A DNA stretch of 64,000 nucleotides, taken from positions 251-64,250 of the forward strand of contig CANRCE010000002.1 in NCBI GenBank assembly GCA_947629035.1. Reading direction: 5' to 3'. This document shows, in pieces, positions 4,821-51,219 of the stretch (within the stretch, counting starts at the first letter, position 1; each line of letters begins with the position of its first letter). Under the pieces are notes generated by a model, which was given only the letters and a program-made list of their open reading frames with translations, had not been told where the DNA came from and ran no database searches. This DNA comes from an uncultured Bacilli bacterium. GTDB lineage: Bacteria; Bacillota_I; Bacilli_A; RF39; UBA660. The position numbers were made by a program, and so were the translations under genes.

Positions 4821-6287
4821 TTGAAAAAAATAAAAACAATATTAAAAATAATTACTTTAATTATAACCACTTGTAGTATTACCAAAGTATCTGCTAGTAG
4901 TTTATCATCGGAAGCTATTGCTGGAGTTTATGGAATATTTATATCTGATGATTATTATTCATTTCCTATGGACATTTATAGAATGGATGGTAGAGTAGCT
5001 TATTGTATTCAACCAGGAACTCAAATTATAACAAGTAATTATCTTGCTACTAGTGATACTAGTTTAAGTGGATTATCTCAAGATAAAATTGATTATATTA
5101 AATTAGTAGCTTACTATGGCTATGATTATTATAACCATCAAAATTATAATTATTATATTGCTGCTCAAGAATTAATTTGGGAAAAAGTAGTTGATGGTGG
5201 AGAGGGTTATTATACAACAACTCAAGAGGTTCATGGAGAAAAAATTGATATTGAAAAATATAAAGAAGAAATTTTAAATTTAATTGCCAAACATAATGAA
5301 ATTCCCTCTTTTGCCGATACAAAAGTTGTAAAACTTAAAAATAAAGATGTAACTATTGAAGATAAAAATAATGTCTTATCTTCATTTGAACTTACTGAAA
5401 GTGGTGCATCAATTAACAAAAATAAACTTACAATAACTAGTGATACAATAAATAAAATTTCTTTAGAAAAAAAGTTATATACTGATAAAGTTTTTTTGTT
5501 ATATTACTATTCTACATCACAAAAAATGATATCAGCAGGAATTATTGATGCTCCTAAAGTAGATGTTTATGTTGAACATACTGGAGCTAATCTTGAAGTT
5601 AAAAAGTTTGGGGAAGAGTTTGATATAACATTAAATGATTATCATAAAATACCTCTAGATGGTGTTACTTTTAATTTATATGCTAAAAGTGATATTGTTA
5701 CTAGTGATAATGTTATTCATTATAAAAGTGGTGATTTAATTGATACTTTTACAACTAATAAAGAGGGAAAAATTAATACTATTTTGTATTTTGGAGAGTA
5801 TTGTCTTGTTGAAAAATATGATAATTTTAATTATAAAATAGAGGATAATCCCTATTGTTTTACTTTAAGTCATGATGATAGTATTTCAATATATAACTAT
5901 CTTAAAAAGGGAAGTTTAAAGGTCATAAAAAAAGATGATAAAACTGGTAAAACATTACAAGGCACTACTATTGGTTTATATACTATGGATTCTAAATTAA
6001 TAGCAAGTAAAACGACAGATAATACAGGTTCAATTATATTTTCTGATATACCACTTGGTAGTTATTATATTAAAGAACTAGAAGCTAGTGAGGGTTATTT
6101 TTTAAATAATGATAAGATTTATGTTGAAGTTTTAGAGGATGATAAATTGGTAACAATTGATATTACTAATGAAAAAATAGTAAAAGTTCCGAAAACTGCT
6201 GATAATGAATATGATATTTCTAAATATATGTTTTTAGTTAATATAATTGGATTGTTTATGTTAAGATATGGTTTTAAGAAAATCTAA
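4821..6287 (+). CDS. cell-wall-anchored surface protein with Cna-B/SpaA-type (prealbumin-like) domains and a C-terminal sorting signal
   Basis: Signal peptide MKKIKTILKIITLIITTCSITKVSASS. Cna-B-like domain GSLKVIKKDDKTGKTLQGTTIGLYTMD...GSIIFSDIPLGSYYIKELEASEGY. C-terminus VPKTAD + hydrophobic YMFLVNIIGLFML + basic tail RYGFKKI, which is a sortase sorting-signal architecture. Host-like NNT codon usage. Confidence 0.7.
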   Translation: MKKIKTILKIITLIITTCSITKVSASSLSSEAIAGVYGIFISDDYYSFPMDIYRMDGRVAYCIQPGTQIITSNYLATSDTSLSGLSQDKIDYIKLVAYYGYDYYNHQNYNYYIAAQELIWEKVVDGGEGYYTTTQEVHGEKIDIEKYKEEILNLIAKHNEIPSFADTKVVKLKNKDVTIEDKNNVLSSFELTESGASINKNKLTITSDTINKISLEKKLYTDKVFLLYYYSTSQKMISAGIIDAPKVDVYVEHTGANLEVKKFGEEFDITLNDYHKIPLDGVTFNLYAKSDIVTSDNVIHYKSGDLIDTFTTNKEGKINTILYFGEYCLVEKYDNFNYKIEDNPYCFTLSHDDSISIYNYLKKGSLKVIKKDDKTGKTLQGTTIGLYTMDSKLIASKTTDNTGSIIFSDIPLGSYYIKELEASEGYFLNNDKIYVEVLEDDKLVTIDITNEKIVKVPKTADNEYDISKYMFLVNIIGLFMLRYGFKKI

Positions 6288-6792
6288 AATAATATTTATA
6301 GGTTTAATTTTTATAATCATATCATTAGGATATTATCGTAATTATTTTATTAATTATTTTGATAATATAAAAGATAAAATAAATGTCGATAATTATCTTT
6401 TAGGAAAAAATAATAAATTATTAGCAGTTATCTATATTCCTAAAATTAATTTAAAAAAAGGAATATATTTTTTAGAAACTAAAGAAAATAATGTAAATAA
6501 AAATATTGAACTCTTAAGAGGATCTACTTCTAGTGATATTCTTTTAGCAGCTCATTCAGGAAATGGAAAAAAAGGTTATTTTAATAATATATTTAATTTA
6601 AAATATAATGATTTTATCTATTTATATCATGAAAATAAAAAATATATTTACGAAGTAATAGATTTTTATAAAGTAGAAAAAGATGGATATTTAAAATTAG
6701 ATTATGTTAATTATAAAAGATTAGTTTTAACAACATGTGATATTCTAGAGGAAAATAAGCAATATGTTGTTATAGCAAAATTGATAACATAA
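6268..6792 (+). CDS. sortase family transpeptidase (short, N-terminal membrane anchor)
   Basis: 174 aa. N-terminal TM, His in LLAAHSG, catalytic Cys in LVLTTCD (TLxTC motif). Overlaps the preceding substrate gene by 20 nt. The usual Arg about 10 residues after the Cys is not obvious (QYVVIAK). Confidence 0.65.
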   Translation: MVLRKSKIIFIGLIFIIISLGYYRNYFINYFDNIKDKINVDNYLLGKNNKLLAVIYIPKINLKKGIYFLETKENNVNKNIELLRGSTSSDILLAAHSGNGKKGYFNNIFNLKYNDFIYLYHENKKYIYEVIDFYKVEKDGYLKLDYVNYKRLVLTTCDILEENKQYVVIAKLIT

Positions 6793-6900
6793 TTTAATAA
6801 AAACTACTTGAAATGGAGATAAAAATATGATATATTAAAGGTGATAAATAGGTAAGGAGAAGTAGAAAAAATGGATAGAAATACAAACATTTGTCTAATA

Positions 6901-6908
6901 GGGGGGGG
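6901..6908. repeat. G8 homopolymeric tract in the intergenic region 126 nt upstream of the giant surface-protein gene
   Basis: ttgtctaataGGGGGGGGtataaaaagcc. A run of eight G in an otherwise roughly 28% GC context. It lies between a TTGTCT hexamer (6891-6896) and a TATAAA hexamer (6909-6914). Confidence 0.9.
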
Positions 6909-7033
6909 TATAAAAAGCCTTATAAAATAAGGGATTATACCGATTATAATATAAATATAAATAATAACTATAATGAAATATTTAGGAAACTAAATAATTT
7001 TCGTTATAGTTTTTTTAATGTAGGTGATAGCCT

Positions 7034-10000
7034 ATGTTAAAAAATATAAGAAGAACATATATCCTAGCAGTAGCAGTAATAGGACTATTAGCAGTAGCAC
7101 TATATTCAACATATGCAATGTTTACAGCAAATGTTGATTTAGCAGATGTAAGTATAACCCCAAATGTAACATTAGATGCTAAATTACTAGAATATGAACA
7201 ATTAACCATACCAAAAAATGAATATAAAATAATAGAGTTAAATGTAGCAAATGATTATAATAGTGAATTACATTATGGAGCATGGTATGAAATGATAAAT
7301 CCAACAACTACAGATAATGTAATAATAGCCAAATATAGTGAAAGTCAAGATGAAACATCAGGAACAATAGGACAAAATATTACGAAGAAAATAAAAGTAA
7401 TCATCTATAATAAAAATAATGAAGATATAACTCTAAATATAGGAATAGGAAGTAATATCGATGAAAACTTAAATTTAGGAGATAATAGACATATAATACA
7501 AGATACTTATACCGTAGTAAAAGCAAATATAACACCAGATAATACAGGAACATTAAATACAAAAGAGCAAGTAATACTTCAAAATAGTGATGCAATATTT
7601 AATGTAACACCAAATGGAAATTATGAAATAAGTAATGTATCATGTACAGGAGACCAAACAGCAAGCTATGTAGGTAATACTGTAACTGTAGCAAATGTAG
7701 CAAAAACTACAACTTGTACGATAACGATGAAAGAGAAAACATATACTGTAAATGCAAGTTTAAATCCATCAGAAGCAGGTCAATTAGATAAAAATACCCA
7801 AACAGTAACAACTGGTCAAACAGCAACCTTTAAAGTAACACCAACTGATGGTTATGAAATAAATAATGTAACATGTACTGACAATAATAATGCAACTTTT
7901 AATGGAGCAACCGTAACAGTTTCTAATGTCACAAGTGATACCACTTGTATTATTAATATGAAATTAAAAACCTATACCGTCTATATAAGTGCAGATAATT
8001 CAACTATAAAAGATGGAACAAAAGTAAATAATATAGTAAAAAATGGTAGTTTTGAAGACGGAAATGCTAATTGGACATTAGAAAATGCAAGTGTAGTAAC
8101 AGCACAACATTCTCATGGTAGTAAATCATTACAATTAAATGGTGGAACGACACCAGTAACGCCTATGAGTAAGCAAACATTATCACCAAAATCACCAGTC
8201 TTAAATCATAAATATTATGGAAGATTAATGTTTTTATCATCAGCTGATTTCTCAACTAGTGATAATAGATATGAATGGTATAGTGGAGATGGACCTAATA
8301 AAAATTTAGTATTTGCTAATAAATCAGATAAAACAACAAGTTGGAAACTATTATCAAATATTCAATGGGTAACGGAAAATACATATTTATCAAACGACTG
8401 GTATATAAGAAATTTCCAAGTAAATGCAAATAGTAATTCATATGTCGATGAGTTAATGATAATAGATTTAACAGATAGTTTTGGAAGTGGAAATGAACCA
8501 AAAAAAGAATGGCTAGATAACATAATACCATATTTTGAAACATCAGGATCAGTATCTAGTAGTAATGTAGTACATGGAAATACAACAAAATTTACAATAA
8601 CACCAGATACAGGATATGAAATAGATAAATATAGTTGTACAAATGCAACTATAACTGCAAGTGAAAATGAATATACAATATCAGGAATTAATCAAAATAC
8701 AAAATGTAATGTAACAACCAAGAAAAAAACCTATAACATAACAACAACAATAACACCATCAAATGGTACAACAGTATCACCATCATCAACAACAGTTAAA
8801 CATGGTGAGACATCAGAAATATTTAAAATAACTCCTAAAACAGGATATCAAGTAAGTTTTGTTAATTGTACAAATGGAGAGGCTAAATTATCAGGAACTA
8901 ACTTTACTGTCGAAAATGTAACGGGTAATTCAGAATGTACTATAACTATGGAACTAAAAAGTTATAAGGTAAGTGCAAGTGTAAGTTCAAATGGAAGTGT
9001 AACTCCATCATCAAAAACCGTAACACATGGATCTAATGCCACTTTTACTGTAAATCCAAATGATGACTATGAAATAGATAAAGTAACATGCTCAAATAAT
9101 CAAAATGCAAGTTTTTCTGGAAATACTGTAACCGTAAAATCAGTTACTAATGAAACATCATGCACTATTACAATGAAGAAAAAAACTTATACTGTAACAG
9201 CTCAAATAAGACCACAAGATGCAGCAACAGTATCTGGAGGTAATACTAAAACAGTAAGTCATGGTTTAAGTACAAGTTTTAGTATAAGTCCTAATACAGA
9301 CTATCAATACTTATCAGTAAGTGGAACAGGCTGTAGTATTTCAGGAACGACACTTAATGTATCAAGTGTAACAGAAGAAGTAACCTGTGTAGTATCATAT
9401 TTTAAATCACTTACTCAAGATATAACAAATTTAAACTATACAGGGGATGTTCAAATATATAAAGTAACAGAAGCCGGATATTATAGATTAGAAGTATGGG
9501 GAGCTGAAGGAGGATATCGATCAAGTAGTATCTATTCAGGAAAAGGAGGATACTCTTACGGAACAGTATATTTAGAAAAAGATACGATGTTATATATTTA
9601 CGCTGGAGGTTCAGGAAATAGTGGAACATGTAGTAATAGTATTTGTACAGGAGGATTTAATGGAGGAGGATATCGACACACCTATAAAGGTGGAGGAGGA
9701 GCATCCGATGTCAGAATAGGCTCTGATGATTATTACTCAAGAGTAATTGTCGCTGGAGGTGGAGGTTCAGATGGAGCATCTACTAAAAAGGGACAATATG
9801 GTGGTGGAGAAACTGGAGGAAGTAGTAGTGAAGACTATAGTTCAGTGCGAGGTTCTGGTGGAAAAGGAGGAACACAAACTTACTCTGGATATTCAACATC
9901 TTATACAATTGAAACCCAAACAACTACAGGGCTTAATAGTAGTAAATTAGAAAATTATGCCGGAGGATTTGGTTTTGGAGGTGGAGGTGTTAGTTATAGA

Positions 10001-11419
10001 AATGGCTATGGAGGCGCTGGTGGAGGTGGCTGGTATGGTGGAAGTGGAAACGTACCAGATAGCTCTAGTGATAACGATAGAGGAGGAGGTGGAGGTTCAG
10101 GCTTTGTCTACACCAGTACAACCCCATCAACAACACTACCATCAGGCTATAAATTAACAGATAAATATCAACTTACTAGTGCAGCTACCATCGGAGGATA
10201 TAAAAGTTTTAATTCTCCATCGGGTTCACAAGAAACAGGACATACAGGAAATGGATATGTAAGAATAACCAAAGATAAATTAACAGTAAATGTATCAGTA
10301 TCACCTAGTGATAGTGCAAACATAACTGGAGATAGTAGTAAAATTACACATCATGGAGAAAATATAGAATTTATTATAACCCCCAAAGAAGGTTATAAAT
10401 ATTTTATGGCAGAAGGATGTACTTATGATGAAAATACAAATACTGCTACAGTATCAAATGTAACACAAGATACTACCTGTATAGTGAGATTCAGAGGAAA
10501 AACTAATATAGATACAATATTTGATAAATGTCAGACTGGAGGATGGAAAGATAATACAGAACCTGGTTTATACGAAGATGGAAATGGAAATTGTAGATAT
10601 GTTGGAGCTGGTCCTAATAATTGGATAAAATTTAATGATGATATGTATCAGATAATTGGAATTTTTAATGAAAATACACACGGTAAAAAAGGAGAGTACT
10701 TACTAAAATTAATTTATCCAGATATACTTATAGCAGCAGCATATGGTGCACATAATATAGATGAAACGAGTGGAACTTACTCAAACTATAGTAGTGATTG
10801 GACAGGATCAAAGCACAGTAGTCCTTCAAGCGCATACCTACTTTTAAATGAATATTTTTATAATGCGGCAGATTCATCAACAAAATATGGGGCATGTGAA
10901 AATTGGACATATTTTAATAATGGGAATGCTGATAAATCAAAAAATTGCGATACAATGGTAGTCTATGGAATAAAAGAAAAATATAGAAATTATATAGAAA
11001 ACACAGCAATATGGTATTTGTATGGACTTTCTTCTACTTATTTCACAAAAAAAGATGTATATCAATGCGAAAGAGGAGGATACAATTGTACAGCACCATA
11101 TGAAGCAACTACCCAAGCACCAATAGGTCTTATATATCTAACAGATTATCTATATGCAAGTGGTTATAGCTCAAATACTGCCAGTTTAACAAATTCTGCA
11201 TTTTACTATGAAAATTGGCTATACCAAGGAAGCGTGTGGGTATTATCACCATATAATGTCAATAGTGCAAGTATAACAAGCTTCGATAATAGCTATTTAT
11301 TTTCATCAAATTATCCATATTTTGGAAATGGTCTTCTCCCCACTTTCTATCTAAAATCTGATGTTAAAGTAACTGGAGGAGATGGAACTTTTAATAATCC
11401 ATATACTATCAGTTATTGA
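7034..11419 (+). CDS. giant (1461 aa) secreted multidomain protein: SipW-cognate-type signal peptide, about 7 InlB-B-like Ig repeats, CBM4_9-like module, glycine-rich (PF12810-like) domain, family-specific C-terminal domain
   Basis: N-terminus RRTYILAVAVIGLLAVALYSTYAMFTANVDL resembles TasA/camelysin-type signal peptides. Repeats of about 75 aa share 'TP.DGYEI..V.C....A.F.G.TVTV.NVT.DTTC.I.M..KTYTV'. Residues about 335-520 carry NGSFEDGNANWTLENASVVTAQHSHGSKSLQLNGG (CBM4_9 pattern). Residues about 805-1075 are Gly-rich (YRLEVWGAEGG...GKGGYSYGTVYLEKDTMLYIYAGGSG...VRIGSDDYYSRVIVAGGGG). The last roughly 300 aa are shared with three paralogs. RBS aGGTGAtagcctATG. Codons end in A (gca, gta, aca, ata, gga), unlike host genes. 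Confidence 0.8.
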   Translation: MLKNIRRTYILAVAVIGLLAVALYSTYAMFTANVDLADVSITPNVTLDAKLLEYEQLTIPKNEYKIIELNVANDYNSELHYGAWYEMINPTTTDNVIIAKYSESQDETSGTIGQNITKKIKVIIYNKNNEDITLNIGIGSNIDENLNLGDNRHIIQDTYTVVKANITPDNTGTLNTKEQVILQNSDAIFNVTPNGNYEISNVSCTGDQTASYVGNTVTVANVAKTTTCTITMKEKTYTVNASLNPSEAGQLDKNTQTVTTGQTATFKVTPTDGYEINNVTCTDNNNATFNGATVTVSNVTSDTTCIINMKLKTYTVYISADNSTIKDGTKVNNIVKNGSFEDGNANWTLENASVVTAQHSHGSKSLQLNGGTTPVTPMSKQTLSPKSPVLNHKYYGRLMFLSSADFSTSDNRYEWYSGDGPNKNLVFANKSDKTTSWKLLSNIQWVTENTYLSNDWYIRNFQVNANSNSYVDELMIIDLTDSFGSGNEPKKEWLDNIIPYFETSGSVSSSNVVHGNTTKFTITPDTGYEIDKYSCTNATITASENEYTISGINQNTKCNVTTKKKTYNITTTITPSNGTTVSPSSTTVKHGETSEIFKITPKTGYQVSFVNCTNGEAKLSGTNFTVENVTGNSECTITMELKSYKVSASVSSNGSVTPSSKTVTHGSNATFTVNPNDDYEIDKVTCSNNQNASFSGNTVTVKSVTNETSCTITMKKKTYTVTAQIRPQDAATVSGGNTKTVSHGLSTSFSISPNTDYQYLSVSGTGCSISGTTLNVSSVTEEVTCVVSYFKSLTQDITNLNYTGDVQIYKVTEAGYYRLEVWGAEGGYRSSSIYSGKGGYSYGTVYLEKDTMLYIYAGGSGNSGTCSNSICTGGFNGGGYRHTYKGGGGASDVRIGSDDYYSRVIVAGGGGSDGASTKKGQYGGGETGGSSSEDYSSVRGSGGKGGTQTYSGYSTSYTIETQTTTGLNSSKLENYAGGFGFGGGGVSYRNGYGGAGGGGWYGGSGNVPDSSSDNDRGGGGGSGFVYTSTTPSTTLPSGYKLTDKYQLTSAATIGGYKSFNSPSGSQETGHTGNGYVRITKDKLTVNVSVSPSDSANITGDSSKITHHGENIEFIITPKEGYKYFMAEGCTYDENTNTATVSNVTQDTTCIVRFRGKTNIDTIFDKCQTGGWKDNTEPGLYEDGNGNCRYVGAGPNNWIKFNDDMYQIIGIFNENTHGKKGEYLLKLIYPDILIAAAYGAHNIDETSGTYSNYSSDWTGSKHSSPSSAYLLLNEYFYNAADSSTKYGACENWTYFNNGNADKSKNCDTMVVYGIKEKYRNYIENTAIWYLYGLSSTYFTKKDVYQCERGGYNCTAPYEATTQAPIGLIYLTDYLYASGYSSNTASLTNSAFYYENWLYQGSVWVLSPYNVNSASITSFDNSYLFSSNYPYFGNGLLPTFYLKSDVKVTGGDGTFNNPYTISY
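9444..10270 (+). other. glycine-rich domain-coding segment inside the giant ORF (PF12810-like); source of spurious alternative-frame ORFs
   Basis: GGN/GGA codon runs. Translated motifs LEVWGAEGG, LYIYAGGSG, ASDVRIG, RVIVAGGGGS, GGAGGGGWYGGSG match the bacterial glycine-rich-protein family pattern. ORF-track entries 9747..9950 and 9957..10157 are off-frame artefacts of this region. Confidence 0.6.
10619..10649 (+). repeat. 31-nt block (aattggataaaatttaatgatgatatgtatc) identical in three paralogs (also 11770..11800 and 25797..25827)
   Basis: Identical at nucleotide level inside the conserved C-terminal domain of the giant ORF, the 338-aa paralog and the 486-aa paralog. Encodes NWIKFNDDMY. Confidence 0.85.
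11338..11376 (+). repeat. 39-nt block near the 3' end of the giant ORF, 37/39 identical to 12468..12506 in the next paralog
   Basis: cccactttctatctaaaatctgatgttaaagtaactgg versus cccactttctatctaaaacctgacgttaaagtaactgg. Encodes PTFYLK(S/P)DVKVTGG. Confidence 0.8.
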
Positions 11420-11532: not shown

Positions 11533-12549
11533 ATGAATAAGAAATCGGTGATAGGTTCTAGTATGATATTAACAACAATAATAGGAATAGTATCAATATA
11601 TATTGGGAATACATATGCAGTAGAAAATGTTAGCGAAAGTGGCTCCTATAACACTTTAGTGGATACAATAATAGGTTTAGCTCCTGAAGAAGTTGGATGG
11701 GAGGCAGGAGCAGAAGGACTATACCAAGATGAAAATGGAGATTATCGATATATTGGAGGTAGTCCAGATAATTGGATAAAATTTAATGATGATATGTATC
11801 GAATAATTGGAATATTTCAAGAAAACACTCATGGTTTAGAAGGCTATCGAGTAAAATTGATTAGAGTAAAACCAATTGGAGCATATGCATATGGAGTTTA
11901 TCTCAAAAATAATTCTACTCGATATCATGGTGTCGACTTGGTTGGAATAAATGATGGTGATCAAAGCACTCCATTAAATTCGTATATATTACTAAATGAA
12001 TATTTTTATAATGCAACAGATGTATCAGAAGATTATGGAAAATGTGAAGATTGGGCATACGTTACAACTAGTAAGACAAAAAATTGTGATACAATAATAG
12101 GATATGGAATAAAAAATGAATACAGAAGTTACATAGAAAACACAGCGACATGGCACTATAATTGGTGTTATACTGATTTAAGTAAACAAGCTTTATATCA
12201 ATGTGAAAGACTTAGTGTTAATATAGATTATAGTACTCAAATGCCAGTTGGAGTAATGTATGCTTCTGATTACGCATACGCAAGTGGATATTTAGCAAGT
12301 TCAGATGCTGTTAATCAAGCGCTACGGGCAGGATCTAATTGGCTTTATATTGGATATGAATGGACAATAACACCAAATTGCTGGTTCCAAACTCTTTTTG
12401 TTAACCCTGGTGGAATGATAAGTTCATGTGATTTTAATTTAGGTTCAGAACATTCTATGCCAATACGTCCCACTTTCTATCTAAAACCTGACGTTAAAGT
12501 AACTGGTGGTACAGGGGCATATGATGATCCATATACTATTAGTATGTAA
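11533..12549 (+). CDS. secreted paralog (338 aa): signal peptide + family C-terminal domain only
   Basis: Signal MNKKSVIGSSMILTTIIGIVSIYIGNTYA|VE. Remainder aligns with the C-terminal 300 aa of the giant ORF (GLYQDENGDYRYIGGSPDNWIKFNDDMYRIIGIF, NTHG, YGKCEDWAY, NCD, QCER, YASGY, NWL, EWTITP, RPTFYLKPDVKVTGG). A-ending codon bias like the giant ORF. Confidence 0.8.
   Translation: MNKKSVIGSSMILTTIIGIVSIYIGNTYAVENVSESGSYNTLVDTIIGLAPEEVGWEAGAEGLYQDENGDYRYIGGSPDNWIKFNDDMYRIIGIFQENTHGLEGYRVKLIRVKPIGAYAYGVYLKNNSTRYHGVDLVGINDGDQSTPLNSYILLNEYFYNATDVSEDYGKCEDWAYVTTSKTKNCDTIIGYGIKNEYRSYIENTATWHYNWCYTDLSKQALYQCERLSVNIDYSTQMPVGVMYASDYAYASGYLASSDAVNQALRAGSNWLYIGYEWTITPNCWFQTLFVNPGGMISSCDFNLGSEHSMPIRPTFYLKPDVKVTGGTGAYDDPYTISM
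11761..11801 (+). repeat. 41-nt block identical to 25788..25828 in the 486-aa paralog
   Basis: agtccagataattggataaaatttaatgatgatatgtatcg is present in both genes. Confidence 0.8.
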
Positions 12550-25154: not shown

Positions 25155-26615
25155 ATGATTGATAAAATAAAAGTAATTTTAGCAATTTGTATAAGTACTT
25201 TCTTATTAGGAATTGGAATGACTTATGCTTGGTATACTTGGCAATCAGATAGTAACACTAACATTTCTTTTAAAATAATGAGTATGGCTGATGTAAGTTT
25301 TGCTACAGGAAATGATATTAATGTCGATGATTTAGCTCCTGTTTTAGACTATAAAGATGGAAAAATGACATCATTTTCTATAAATAATAAAAAAGAACAA
25401 ACCTTTACTGGTATGGTTAATTTAGAAATAACAACGATAGATGAAAATTTAAGAGTTGAAGATTTTAAATATGTTTTATTAAGCTCCAATGATAATAATA
25501 GTTTTACAGAAATAGCCAATGGTAATTTTAAAGATCAAGGACCTCAAACTATTACAATTAAAGAAATAGAAGTAAATCCAGGTATTACGTATTATCAATT
25601 TATAATTTATATCGATGGTAATATGGAAAATAATATTAATATGATGAATAAGCAATTTGTAGCTAAACTTATGGTTGAAGTTAAGGGAGTAAGTGATATA
25701 TTAGATTCTTGTGCTGATGAAGAGTGGGTATCTGGCGCTGAAGGCTTATATAAAGATGGAAATGGAAATTGTCGATATATCGGTGCAAGTCCAGATAATT
25801 GGATAAAATTTAATGATGATATGTATCGTATAATTGGTATTTTTGATGGTAATACTCATAAAAAAGAGCAAGAGAATTTATTAAAACTAATATATCCAAG
25901 TGCTTTTATTTCTAGTTCTTATGGAATATATAATACTACTAATGATAGTGGTACTTATTCTAATTATAGTAATAGTTTTAAGAATGATACTCAAGCTAGT
26001 CCATCAAATGCTTATGTTTTATTAAATGAATATTTTTATAATAAAACTAATACGTCAGGCACATATGGTGATTGTAATAATTGGACATATTTTCGAAATA
26101 GTGATGGAAAACAAGTAGGAAGCTGTGATAAAATGTTAGCCTATGGTATAAAAAGTGAATATCAAGATTATATTGAAAGTAATGTAACTTGGTATTTATA
26201 TGGAAATGCAGATAATACTATTAAAAGACAAGAGATGTATTTGTGTGAGAGAGGATTAAATGGTTGTACTAGTGCAAATGGTGGAGCGTCTAGTGAAAGT
26301 ATTATAGCTCCAATTGGATTAATGTACCCATCAGATTATTCATATGCTAGTGGTAAGTATTCAATAAGTGAAGATCCAAGATTATCTGAAAAAGATTTAG
26401 GTATTGAAAATTGGCTATTTACAGGTTATGAGTGGATTATAACACCATCAAGTAGTGATGCTAAAAAAGTTTTTCAAATAACGGATCAAGGTTTAGTTGA
26501 TATAGAGAGTGCATATCACTCACTTGTCTTACGTCCTGTATTTTATTTAAAATCAGATGTAAAAATAATAAATGGAAGTGGATCTTATAATGATCCTTAT
26601 GAAGTAAGTTTATAA
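25155..26615 (+). CDS. secreted paralog (486 aa): SipW-cognate-type signal peptide + roughly 150-aa N-terminal domain + family C-terminal domain
   Basis: N-terminus KVILAICISTFLLGIGMTYAWYTWQSDSN resembles TasA/camelysin signal peptides. The C-terminal 300 aa align with the other three paralogs (GLYKDGNGNCRYIGASPDNWIKFNDDMYRIIGIF, NTH, YGDCNNWTYF, SCD, LCERG, YASG, ENWL, EWIITP, RPVFYLKSDVKI). Host-like T-ending codons. Confidence 0.75.
   Translation: MIDKIKVILAICISTFLLGIGMTYAWYTWQSDSNTNISFKIMSMADVSFATGNDINVDDLAPVLDYKDGKMTSFSINNKKEQTFTGMVNLEITTIDENLRVEDFKYVLLSSNDNNSFTEIANGNFKDQGPQTITIKEIEVNPGITYYQFIIYIDGNMENNINMMNKQFVAKLMVEVKGVSDILDSCADEEWVSGAEGLYKDGNGNCRYIGASPDNWIKFNDDMYRIIGIFDGNTHKKEQENLLKLIYPSAFISSSYGIYNTTNDSGTYSNYSNSFKNDTQASPSNAYVLLNEYFYNKTNTSGTYGDCNNWTYFRNSDGKQVGSCDKMLAYGIKSEYQDYIESNVTWYLYGNADNTIKRQEMYLCERGLNGCTSANGGASSESIIAPIGLMYPSDYSYASGKYSISEDPRLSEKDLGIENWLFTGYEWIITPSSSDAKKVFQITDQGLVDIESAYHSLVLRPVFYLKSDVKIINGSGSYNDPYEVSL
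25788..25828 (+). repeat. 41-nt block identical to 11761..11801
   Basis: agtccagataattggataaaatttaatgatgatatgtatcg. Confidence 0.8.
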
Positions 26616-26639: not shown

Positions 26640-27692
26640 TTGCAAAAGAAATTGATAATAAATTTTAGTTTAATATTAATAGTAATTACTATGGCATCAG
26701 TATATATAGGAAATACTTATGCTCATGCTGATGAATCATCCCAAGCAGCAACTACTTTATTAACAGAGGAGATTAAGAATAAAAGCCAAGGCCAAGGTTG
26801 GTCTTCGGGTAATGAAGGATTATATCAGGATGAAAATGGTGACTATCGATATGTCGGAGCAAATCCTAATAATTGGGTAATATTTAATGATGATAGATAT
26901 CAAATAATTGGTATGTTTAATAAAAATACCCATGGATTGGATGGCTATCGAGTAAAATTAATAAGAGCAAAACCAATCGGGGCTTATGCTTGGGGAGTAT
27001 ATAATGATAGCAATACTAGTGGTACTTATTCTAATTATAGTGCTAATTGGACTGGAAAAGGTCAAAGTACGCCAGCTAATTTATATGTTTTATTAAATGA
27101 ATATTTTTATAATAAAAAAGATACTTCAGATACATATGGTAATTGTAATGATTGGACATATTTTTCATCCAATTTAAGAAAAACCCAAAATTGTGATGTT
27201 ATAGTAGACTATGGTATAAAAAGTGAATATCAAAATTATATTGAAAGTGAGGCAACCTGGTATTTATATGGCATTTTAAGTACTAATTTAGAAGTACAAA
27301 GGCGAGATATGTACGAGTGTGAAAGAGGATCGGGAGATTGTACTAGTGCAAATAGTGGAGCATCTGATACAAGTATCACTGCGCCAATTGGACTTATGTA
27401 TCCTACTGATTATCTATATGCAACTAATAATTATGCTGATAGTAATAATGCTCATAAATTAGTCGAAAACAATTATGGTATTTCCAATTGGTTATATATG
27501 GGTTATGAGTGGACTATAACTCCAACTACTGATGAGCAAATTGCTCTTCGAGTTGAGTATAATAGTAGTATTAATAAAAATTATACTTGTTTTGCTAATC
27601 TTGTTCGTCCAACTTTTTATTTAAAGTCTGATGTTTATGTAAAAAGTGGTGATGGGTCATATAATAATCCTTATGTCTTGACACTTTCGTAA
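26640..27692 (+). CDS. secreted paralog (350 aa): signal peptide + family C-terminal domain
   Basis: TTG start with RBS aaaGAGGTG. Signal ...ITMASVYIGNTYA|HADE. Domain GLYQDENGDYRYVGANPNNWVIFNDDRYQIIGMF, NTHG, YGNCNDWTYF, NCD, ECERG, YAT, NWL, EWTITP, RPTFYLKSDVYV. Confidence 0.75.
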   Translation: MQKKLIINFSLILIVITMASVYIGNTYAHADESSQAATTLLTEEIKNKSQGQGWSSGNEGLYQDENGDYRYVGANPNNWVIFNDDRYQIIGMFNKNTHGLDGYRVKLIRAKPIGAYAWGVYNDSNTSGTYSNYSANWTGKGQSTPANLYVLLNEYFYNKKDTSDTYGNCNDWTYFSSNLRKTQNCDVIVDYGIKSEYQNYIESEATWYLYGILSTNLEVQRRDMYECERGSGDCTSANSGASDTSITAPIGLMYPTDYLYATNNYADSNNAHKLVENNYGISNWLYMGYEWTITPTTDEQIALRVEYNSSINKNYTCFANLVRPTFYLKSDVYVKSGDGSYNNPYVLTLS

Positions 27693-27936
27693 ATATATAG
27701 TTAATTTTCTTGAAAAAAAGAAATTATTATGATACAATTAATACATCTAGAGGATACGATATCTATTATATAAAACCGACTAAGGATATATACGGGAATC
27801 TAATACTTACTATGTGTTGAATGCTTAAGATATTTCTTAAGAATCCTAATTAGTTTGTTGTGATTACCCACCTGTTGTAAGAGCGGGTTTTATCCTAATT
27901 TAGAGTCGATCCTTTGGATTTTTTAATGGAGATAAA

Positions 27937-48398: not shown

Positions 48399-48474
48399 TG
48401 CCCCATAGCCAAGTGGTAAGGCATCGGACTCTGACTCCGACATTTCGTTAGTTCGAATCTAACTGGGGCAACCA
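48399..48474 (+). tRNA. tRNA-Gln (anticodon CUG)
   Basis: 76 nt, hand-folded. Acceptor TGCCCCA/TGGGGCA, anticodon stem TCGGA/TCCGA with loop cuCUGac, T-loop TTCGAAT, 3' ACCA. Close to the Bacillus tRNA-Gln backbone but with C34. Confidence 0.8.
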
Positions 48475-48486
48475 AGATTGATAAAT

Positions 48487-48508
48487 CCTTATTTTATAAG
48501 GTTTTTTT
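48487..48508 (+). terminator. rho-independent terminator after tRNA-Gln
   Basis: ccttat-ttt-ataagg followed by ttttttt. Confidence 0.7.
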
Positions 48509-51142: not shown

Positions 51143-51219
51143 TGGCCTGTTGGTGAAGTGGTTAACACGGTACCCTCTCAAGGTATTATTCACGGGTTCA
51201 AGTCCCGTACAGGCTACCA
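51143..51219 (+). tRNA. tRNA-Glu-like gene with an apparent 8-nt anticodon loop (cuCUCaaa)
   Basis: 77 nt. Acceptor GGCCTGT/ACAGGCT, T-arm ACGGG-TTCAAGT-CCCGT, 3' ACCA. The backbone aligns with Bacillus tRNA-Glu (GGCCCGTTGGTCAAGCGGTTAA...). The anticodon stem GTACC/GGTAT encloses CTCTCAAA (8 nt), one more than canonical; a possible anticodon is CUC. Confidence 0.55.

Follow-up and report, generated by a model that had tools for sequence, protein, structure and literature searches.

We report on a run of eight guanines (G8) in the 241-nucleotide (nt) intergenic region upstream of a gene for a 1461-amino-acid (aa) protein in an uncultured Bacilli bacterium. The DNA analysed, referred to below as the window, is a stretch of 64,000 nt of contig CANRCE010000002.1, and all positions are those of the window unless a locus is named. 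On the basis of the sequence and of modelling, we consider it probable that a phase-variation switch, with the G8 tract as its mutable element, lies in a translated leader and controls an attenuator upstream of the large gene.

The mechanism that we propose is as follows. Transcription would begin at an extended -10 promoter at about 6808-6836, and ribosomes would load at AAGGAG and the ATG at 6871, translating a leader open reading frame (ORF) that contains the tract. With G8 (as well as with G5 or G11) the ribosome would release a peptide of 18-20 aa at the stop at 6928, 38 nt ahead of the attenuator hairpin, and with G7 or G10 it would stop at 6911. In these short-peptide states a 20-bp hairpin followed by U7 (6966-7016) would form and end most transcripts, and the read-through RNA would have the Shine-Dalgarno (SD) sequence and ATG of the main gene locked in another hairpin (B, 7012-7043); the state would be OFF or low. 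If slipped-strand events added one G or removed two, the ribosome would be shifted into the sole open frame. In this ON state a peptide of 55-57 aa would be translated through both hairpins up to the TAA at 7038, which overlaps the ATG at 7034; formation of the terminator would be prevented, and translation of the 1461-aa protein would be unmasked or coupled. That a change in tract length alters expression of the large gene is a prediction from the frames and the modelled structures. With three frames, any OFF state necessarily lies a single step from ON, and this is not used here as evidence.

The tract, the leader frames and the hairpins

The segment 6891-6914 (TTGTCTAATAGGGGGGGGTATAAA) contains TTGTCT (6891-6896), the G8 tract (6901-6908) and TATAAA (6909-6914); 12 nt separate the hexamers, and 125 nt separate the tract from the ATG at 7034. 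This arrangement, pointed out in a preliminary description made from the sequence alone, is read directly in the window. The same description called the run improbable in DNA of about 28% GC. It is improbable, being the only G/C run of at least six in 64 kb (0.014 such runs are expected with independent bases and 0.05 under a first-order Markov model), but the GC content is about 24-25%, both locally and in the window. The tract is thus a repeat that is improbable by composition and long enough to slip. GGG makes up 4.4% of glycine codons, and the GGGG and GGGGG peptide runs of the large protein are all encoded by GGA and GGT; we conclude that G8 is not a by-product of coding and that G homopolymers are avoided except at this site.

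The G8 is also present in an independent metagenome contig of the European Nucleotide Archive (ENA; L001) with an identical sortase gene, and it is therefore not an assembly artefact of this record. L001 differs from the window by a 6-nt in-frame indel and one single-nucleotide polymorphism, both in the linker only, and the long frame is still open in it. Look-ups of the exact protein returned three low-coverage ENA contigs, one with G8 and two (L002 and L003) that break off 4 nt short of it. The JGI metagenomes gave no match to a 23-nt DNA anchor, and a GTDB scan with the sortase found only relatives of 35-45% identity, which carry no G runs.

The leader ORF opens with the pattern MD...C.(L/I)GGG, homologous to the peptides of relatives (e.g., MDIYLTKLTVCKLGGG). 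Its translations for different tract lengths are given in Table 1. Between the tract and 7038 the long frame contains no stop codons (the remaining frames contain 5 and 13), and the probability of a given frame being open is 0.008 as estimated by shuffling. The short forms in the window end 38 and 55 nt before the stem of hairpin A, and the long form ends 27 nt past this stem.

The leader RNA is strongly structured (z = -6.8 for 6843-7045). Hairpin A, a predicted intrinsic terminator, has a free energy of -17.5 kcal/mol and z = -5.2, and none of 200 shuffled sequences folds as well. Its alignment across 21 leaders exhibits compensatory changes at 13 of the 19 pairs; 94.7% of the alignment cells are paired, against 34-52% with the partners slid, and the observed value is matched by none of 500 shuffles. 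A covariance model of the terminator has a single match in the window (6962-7018, 56 bits). A simple terminator scan missed hairpin A because it has fewer than three G-C pairs.

The CCTTAyAAAATAAGr core of hairpin C recurs in five of the homologous leaders described below (L028, L032, L034, L037 and L039). A 21-nt near-copy of this core, AAGCCTTATAAAATAAGG, is found at 48487-48507 of the window as a minus-strand match, where it reads AAATCCTTATTTTATAAGGTTTTTTT. It directly follows a tRNA gene (48399-48471) and resembles an ordinary terminator, so that the match is probably a coincidental reuse of a palindrome. A structure analogous to hairpin B, i.e., a stem sequestering the SD and ATG, is present in L017.

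Table 1. Features of the leader region and of the adjacent genes in the window, and tract lengths in homologous leaders
Feature	Position	Strand	Remarks
Pilin-like TED/SpaA protein and overlapping small sortase	4821..6792	+	Immediately upstream of the leader region
Candidate promoter of the leader transcript, TTGAAA-17-TGaTATATT (extended -10)	6808..6836	+	10/12 consensus positions
SD sequence of the leader ORF, AAGGAG	6854..6859	+	Read from the sequence; relatives carry GGAAGGAG there
Leader ORF, present G8 short form (presumed OFF)	6871..6930	+	MDRNTNICLIGGGIKSLIK; ATG 6871, 19 aa, TAA 6928-6930
G8 homopolymer, presumed slippage site	6901..6908	+	Codons GGG GGG GGt
Leader peptide with G8, G5 or G11, 18-20 aa	stop 6928		Translations computed for G5-G12
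Leader peptide with G7 or G10, 13-14 aa	stop 6911		Translations computed for G5-G12
Leader peptide with G9, G6 or G12, 55-57 aa (G9, 56 aa)	stop TAA 7038-7040
Continuation frame after gain of one G or loss of two	6909..7040	+	Open for 43 codons; TAA 7038-7040 overlaps the main ATG (ATGTTAA)
Hairpin C, GGUAUAA...UUAUACC around CCUUAU-AAA-AUAAGG	6907..6941	+	Minimum free energy (MFE) fold of the leader; holds the short-form stop codon
Hairpin A and U7, AU-rich predicted intrinsic terminator/attenuator	6966..7016	+	20-bp stem 6966-7011, GAAA loop, U run 7010-7016
Hairpin B, 14-bp stem predicted to sequester the SD (AGGTGA, 7022-7027) and ATG (7034-7036) of the main gene	7012..7043	+	MFE and centroid folds; inverted repeat I5
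Presumably controlled gene, predicted 1461-aa modular secreted/surface protein	7034..11419	+	Several domains (see text)
G8 tract			Window, L001
G9 tract			L032, L034, L037, L039
G10 tract			L020, L021, L028, L046, L048, L052, second leader of L030
G11 tract			L018, L019, L029, L030, L054, L055
G5 tract			L016, L017

Homologous leaders, the candidate promoter and alternative explanations

The N-terminal domain of the large protein, with the motif YSTYAMFT, defines a family whose loci carry the poly-G leader. An alignment of this domain was scanned against metagenomes and gave 42 loci, many of which have a clearly homologous leader upstream of the family gene; the 15 leaders with a recognisable start were fully analysed. 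The shared order is a promoter, GGAAGGAG, the start codon ATG of a peptide such as MDIYLTKLTVCKL-GGG, the G tract, the terminator, the SD and the main ATG; the terminator shares the sequence AACTATAG...CTATAG followed by a T run. Seventeen tracts of G8-G11 and two of G5 occupy the same position in the leader (Table 1). The G/C runs of at least seven in 252 kb of fetched loci also number 17, and all of them lie within these leaders.

Each of the 15 analysed leaders has exactly one long frame (39-60 aa). In the 14 leaders other than that of the window, the distance from the stop to the U run is 68-89 nt for the short frames; for the long frame it is 12-18 nt in 13 of the 14, which puts the stop in the 3' arm of the hairpin, and in L017 the long frame runs to the main ATG. 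Across 7 subfamilies, the product of the chance probabilities of an open frame is about 10^-6.7. Tract length is polymorphic between close relatives: L028 (G10, short frame) and L037 (G9, long frame) have leaders that are 98% identical. As assembled, the long state is found in L032 and L037 and the short state in about 13 others; this ratio (2/~15) does not depart significantly from one third, and the loci cannot be treated as independent. L016 and L017 are distant members of the family. In L016 the leader ORF has an SD, the G5 tract and a stop soon after it, and the extended frame ends inside a hairpin of -20.4 kcal/mol with U7; the layout of L017 is the same, with the extended frame ending at a TGA that overlaps the main ATG.

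Several of these loci deserve separate mention. L030 contains two family genes in tandem, each with a complete poly-G leader (G11 at 1002-1012 and G10 at 2662-2671), and judging from this layout the two copies could be switched independently. In L043 (568-707) there is no tract, and the leader ORF is fixed in the frame that stops inside the hairpin. The tract is lost in L022 (219-434) and L042 (250-363), where an inserted stretch of about 75 nt, perhaps a bypass promoter, follows the terminator ahead of the main ATG. L023 (43-146) has an interrupted tract (GGGAGGGG) and a broken U run, and L046 (1437-1491) has a broken U run with the G10 kept. These five leaders look decayed or locked. In L018-L021, L029, L030 and L046 (e.g., L019, 190-245) the sequences on either side of the tract form an imperfect inverted repeat, TTAACTGTTTGTAAA ... 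TTTACCTACCTGTTAA, which would place the G run in a hairpin loop in the RNA; there is no equivalent in the window. Four independent contigs end within 10 nt of a tract: L002 and L003 end at a site equivalent to 6896 of the window, and L034 and L048 start 8-9 nt before the tract. This suggests either length heterogeneity in the population or difficulties in sequencing poly-G.

The preliminary description proposed a poly-G slipped-strand switch in which the tract length tunes the spacing between TTGTCT and TATAAA. The first half of this proposal agrees with the homologous leaders (G5 and G8-G11, including the 98%-identical pair that differs by one G); the tuning does not. Transcription of the leader likely starts at the candidate promoter at about 6808-6836, to judge from its sequence: it is the sole site of the region with a TG before the -10 element in the promoter scan, and 11 of the 15 homologous leaders have TTGnnA-17-TGnTAnnnT at a distance of 33-74 nt ahead of the leader ATG. 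Since this conserved promoter precedes the leader ORF, the tract would be transcribed and would lie within the translated ORF.

It could still be assumed that TTGTCT (6891) and TATAAA (6909) are the -35 and -10 elements of the large gene, both being present in the window; L018-L021, L029 and L030 moreover have TTGTAA before the tract and a perfect TATAAT after it. Promoters of the sigma-70 type use a spacing of 16-18 nt. The hexamers are 12 nt apart in the window and 13-15 nt apart in relatives (14-15 nt in the group with TATAAT), and 16-18 nt is never observed. They are missing from the leaders of L028/L037, L032/L039, L054/L055 and L016/L017, where the tract, frames and terminator are conserved, and TATAAT or TATAAA after the tract is limited to the window and one subfamily. 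The promoter scan does not call the pair because of its 12-nt spacer, and AT-rich hexamers occur in the region at the chance rate (15 found, 13 expected). A promoter at this site would leave the terminator hairpin in its own 5' untranslated region without relief. Finally, the TATAA after the tract doubles as the immediate stop (GTA TAA) of one frame. We thus regard phase variation through the promoter spacer as very improbable.

The next question is whether access to the long frame could be non-heritable. The G run would then be a slippery site (for -1 ribosomal frameshifting or transcriptional slippage), and a fixed or condition-dependent fraction of ribosomes would enter the long frame and relieve attenuation with the DNA unchanged. 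A -1 shift at G_GGG_GGU leads exactly into the long frame, hairpin C begins at the 3' end of the tract, and L016 and L017 conserve an open long frame together with G5, which is poor for DNA slippage. We nevertheless believe that such recoding is unlikely to be the explanation: the close relatives L028 and L037 differ in tract length and frame, which is the signature of switching at the DNA level; no conserved downstream stimulatory structure is found at the usual 5-9 nt, the tract in L018-L021 lying in the loop of the inverted repeat; and G5 gives no proper X_XXY_YYZ heptamer. The leader always directly precedes a gene of a single protein family and has its stop placed at the terminator, which is difficult to reconcile with another idea, namely that the long frame encodes a functional small protein, itself phase-variable, with the hairpin merely embedded in its gene and the large gene uncontrolled. 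The idea draws on the motif (K)PYKIR(D/N/G)Y, which is common to the window, L028, L037, L032, L034 and L039 and has third-position differences (CCTTAT...AGG and CCTTAC...AGA). But the motif is missing from the L018-L021, L054 and L016/L017 subfamilies, the remaining peptide is low in complexity and unconserved, with a flat codon-position test, and the motif coincides with the nucleotides of hairpin C, so that the recurrence of PYKIRDY may reflect the hairpin rather than the peptide. A small-protein gene therefore seems to us decidedly improbable.

The last alternative is that the G run has arisen by chance or is decaying, or that it is an artefact of sequencing or assembly, and that it plays no regulatory role. 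Both same-species sequences indeed have the identical G8 (n = 2), poly-G is a known trouble spot for short reads, and several contigs break at the tract. Against this, about 0.01-0.05 such runs are expected per window, the G8 is found in two independent assemblies, and more than 15 loci, sampled in different studies, have homologous tracts in the same place and nowhere else; we find a neutral or artefactual origin hardly credible. Other candidates were also rejected. Rfam 15 has nothing in the leader at the gathering threshold, and matches at E-values up to 10 are at the chance level only; a riboswitch or another known RNA was discarded on these scans. An inverted-repeat search around the region gave no convincing arms for an invertible-promoter switch. 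A repeated or mobile element starting from 6897, which might have accounted for the contig breaks, was discarded as well: blastn of the intergenic region against the window gave no second copy beyond the 21-nt palindromic match at 48487-48507.

Some observations weigh against the switch in a translated leader that we favour, and they should be stated together. The spacing of 11 nt between the leader SD and its ATG is rather long. The variable sites of the long frame are distributed over the codon positions as 7/4/6, i.e., there is no clear purifying selection on the peptide; the evidence thus rests on the open frame and not on conservation of the peptide. The terminator stem is very poor in G-C pairs, and hairpin B and the overlap of the stop with the ATG are unconserved in most relatives. 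The tract has the same length (G8) in both same-species sequences compared, the window and L001 (n = 2), and this G8 is the shortest among the presumably active tracts; tract lengths taken from short-read assemblies may moreover be off by one. The G5 is kept in both L016 and L017 with the same frame logic, and it is too short for frequent DNA slippage, which hints that something besides heritable slippage may give access to the long frame.

The large gene and its neighbourhood

The 1461-aa protein consists of an N-terminal hydrophobic helix and beta-sandwich domain, InlB-B-repeat-like modules, an ALK/LTK-type glycine-rich domain and a C-terminal domain. The preliminary description spoke of a "large surface protein"; the large ORF is there, and the hydrophobic helix, the beta-sandwich and the modules suggest a surface location, with the reservation that the assignment is made from sequence and models. 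The protein has no LPXTG-type signal and no pilin domains. It has no match in NCBIfam, in a PDB sequence search or in Foldseek, where a model of the N-terminal domain (pLDDT 76) gave a generic beta-sandwich; its PHROG matches are confined to the glycine-rich domain and are to families of unknown function. We presume a likeness of YSTYAMFT to SipW-type (TasA/camelysin) signal peptides.

The large protein itself is missing from the protein collection, and its first 450 aa have no close relative there; the downstream neighbour (11533-12549, 338 aa) is present in it. A 621-aa protein from an NCBI metagenome-assembled genome (MAG), P0001, is near-identical over the first 60-odd aa and 69% identical over residues 1-312, and its middle modules differ. 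The C-terminal domain recurs in two other genes of the window (25155-26615 and 26640-27692). Considering the constant N-terminus, the differing modules and the recurring C-terminal domain, we conclude that the family evolves by module shuffling. In one further locus, L060 (1-1073 and 1501-3495), the family member P0035 immediately follows a bAvd-like gene and a reverse-transcriptase gene (RVT_1); the latter two genes are the hallmark pair of a diversity-generating retroelement, and the locus has a plain promoter and no poly-G leader.

Upstream of the leader region, the TED/SpaA protein has at its C-terminus VPKTA, a hydrophobic stretch and a basic tail, i.e., a variant of the LPXTG sorting signal, and the sortase is very small (174 aa), with scores that fall far short of the cut-offs for classes C and D. 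No terminator was found between 6792 and the leader promoter, so that read-through from the pilin/sortase operon into the leader is possible. The window is a part of the core chromosome (aminoacyl-tRNA synthetases, MreC, RadC, 6S RNA and tRNAs), and its ordinary features include the 6S RNA at 27741-27924 and the tRNAs at 48399-48471 and 51144-51216. In GTDB the closest records are MAGs labelled "uncultured Bacilli" that come from the gut of humans and rabbits.

Meaning and comparison with known systems

It is tempting to generalise these observations to a widespread and undescribed "poly-G leader switch" cassette of uncultured human and animal gut Bacilli, in which homopolymer slippage in a leader ORF would set how far the ribosome reaches over a covarying terminator and would stochastically switch a family of modular secreted proteins. 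In our judgement the case for and against this broader proposal is evenly balanced. The cassette seems to move together with the conserved N-terminal domain as the passenger modules are reshuffled, some contigs would hold several copies switched independently of one another (two in tandem in L030), and the conserved G5 forms could be the same architecture driven by recoding instead of mutation.

Full-text literature searches returned no description of an attenuator with a homopolymer in the leader peptide or of this leader. The combination of phase variation with leader-peptide attenuation has so far been shown in one species, Streptococcus gallolyticus, with a pentanucleotide repeat. If our proposal is true, the same logic operates on a plain G homopolymer in dozens of loci of uncultured gut bacteria, and it would be a general design and not a curiosity; an uncharacterised family of large secreted proteins would prove antigenically or ecologically important enough for stochastic switching. 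The proposal would also account for the assembly breaks at these sites and would provide a signature for mining metagenomes: an SD and ATG, a G tract of about eight or more, one open frame, and an AU-rich hairpin with a U run. If such tracts are annotated as promoter spacers or as intergenic sequence, the wrong mechanism may be assigned to them.

Homopolymers and short repeats between promoter elements act as switches in Neisseria meningitidis (poly-C/G of opc and porA), Mycoplasma hyorhinis (poly-A of vlp) and Haemophilus influenzae (TA repeats of hif), where the common lengths give 16-18 nt. Our locus resembles them in having a homopolymer upstream of a (putative) surface-protein gene whose expression would be changed by slippage. 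It differs in the spacing of 12-15 nt and the unconserved hexamers, so that neither feature of such a promoter was found, and in the tract being, as we presume, transcribed and translated. Intragenic poly-G/C contingency loci are known from Campylobacter jejuni, Helicobacter pylori and Neisseria, and there the frameshift truncates the effector itself. Frame switching by tracts of G8-G11, polymorphic tract lengths and assemblies mostly in one phase are features in common, whereas here the length of a leader peptide, which is not the effector, would change and act on a terminator. In the leaders of the trp operon, ermC and cat, the position of the ribosome is set by the amino-acid supply or by drug-induced stalling. 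The likeness is that the position of the ribosome on a short ORF decides on a terminator or on an SD-sequestering hairpin; the difference is that here a heritable frameshift in the leader would set this position.

The closest parallel is the Pil1/Pil3 system of S. gallolyticus, where a repeat is located in a leader peptide gene and the short form stops 39-49 bp before a terminator of -18.7 kcal/mol with 6 T (Danne et al. 2014, PMC3894217). Repeat changes that are out of frame lead to longer peptides ending in or beyond the hairpin; the ribosome then prevents termination, and transcription is raised, as dissected experimentally with, among other means, ATG/RBS mutants or translation inhibitors (PMC3894217). 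In the window, as in Pil1, a (candidate) promoter is upstream of a short leader ORF with its own ribosome-binding site and a potentially hypermutable repeat inside it, and a predicted stem-loop terminator with a U run separates the leader stop from the structural gene. The stop of the short form precedes the terminator by 38 nt in the window and by 39-49 bp in Pil1, in both cases more than about 28 nt, and the frameshifted form stops within or beyond it; the hairpins are of similar energy (-17.5 and -18.7 kcal/mol), with U7 and T6, respectively. In both cases the target would be a surface structure of a gut Gram-positive bacterium, and most sequenced states are of the short, low-expression form (presumed here).

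The differences are also considerable. The repeat is a G homopolymer of 5-11 G here and 13-22 GCAGA units in Pil1, and there is no GCAGA array in the leader of the window. The downstream gene encodes a large non-LPXTG protein with the YSTYAMFT N-terminus instead of a pilA-pilB-srtC operon; the pilin and sortase genes of the window are upstream of the leader and not downstream, so that control of a pilus operon is not seen here. The long ORF in the window would also open the hairpin sequestering the SD and ATG, and its end overlaps the main ATG, so that translational coupling is suggested. The hosts here are uncultured low-GC gut Bacilli, and the switch is a prediction from sequence. By analogy, we believe that the locus would function as Pil1 does; it is not homologous to Pil1, since the two differ in repeat type, leader sequence and cargo.

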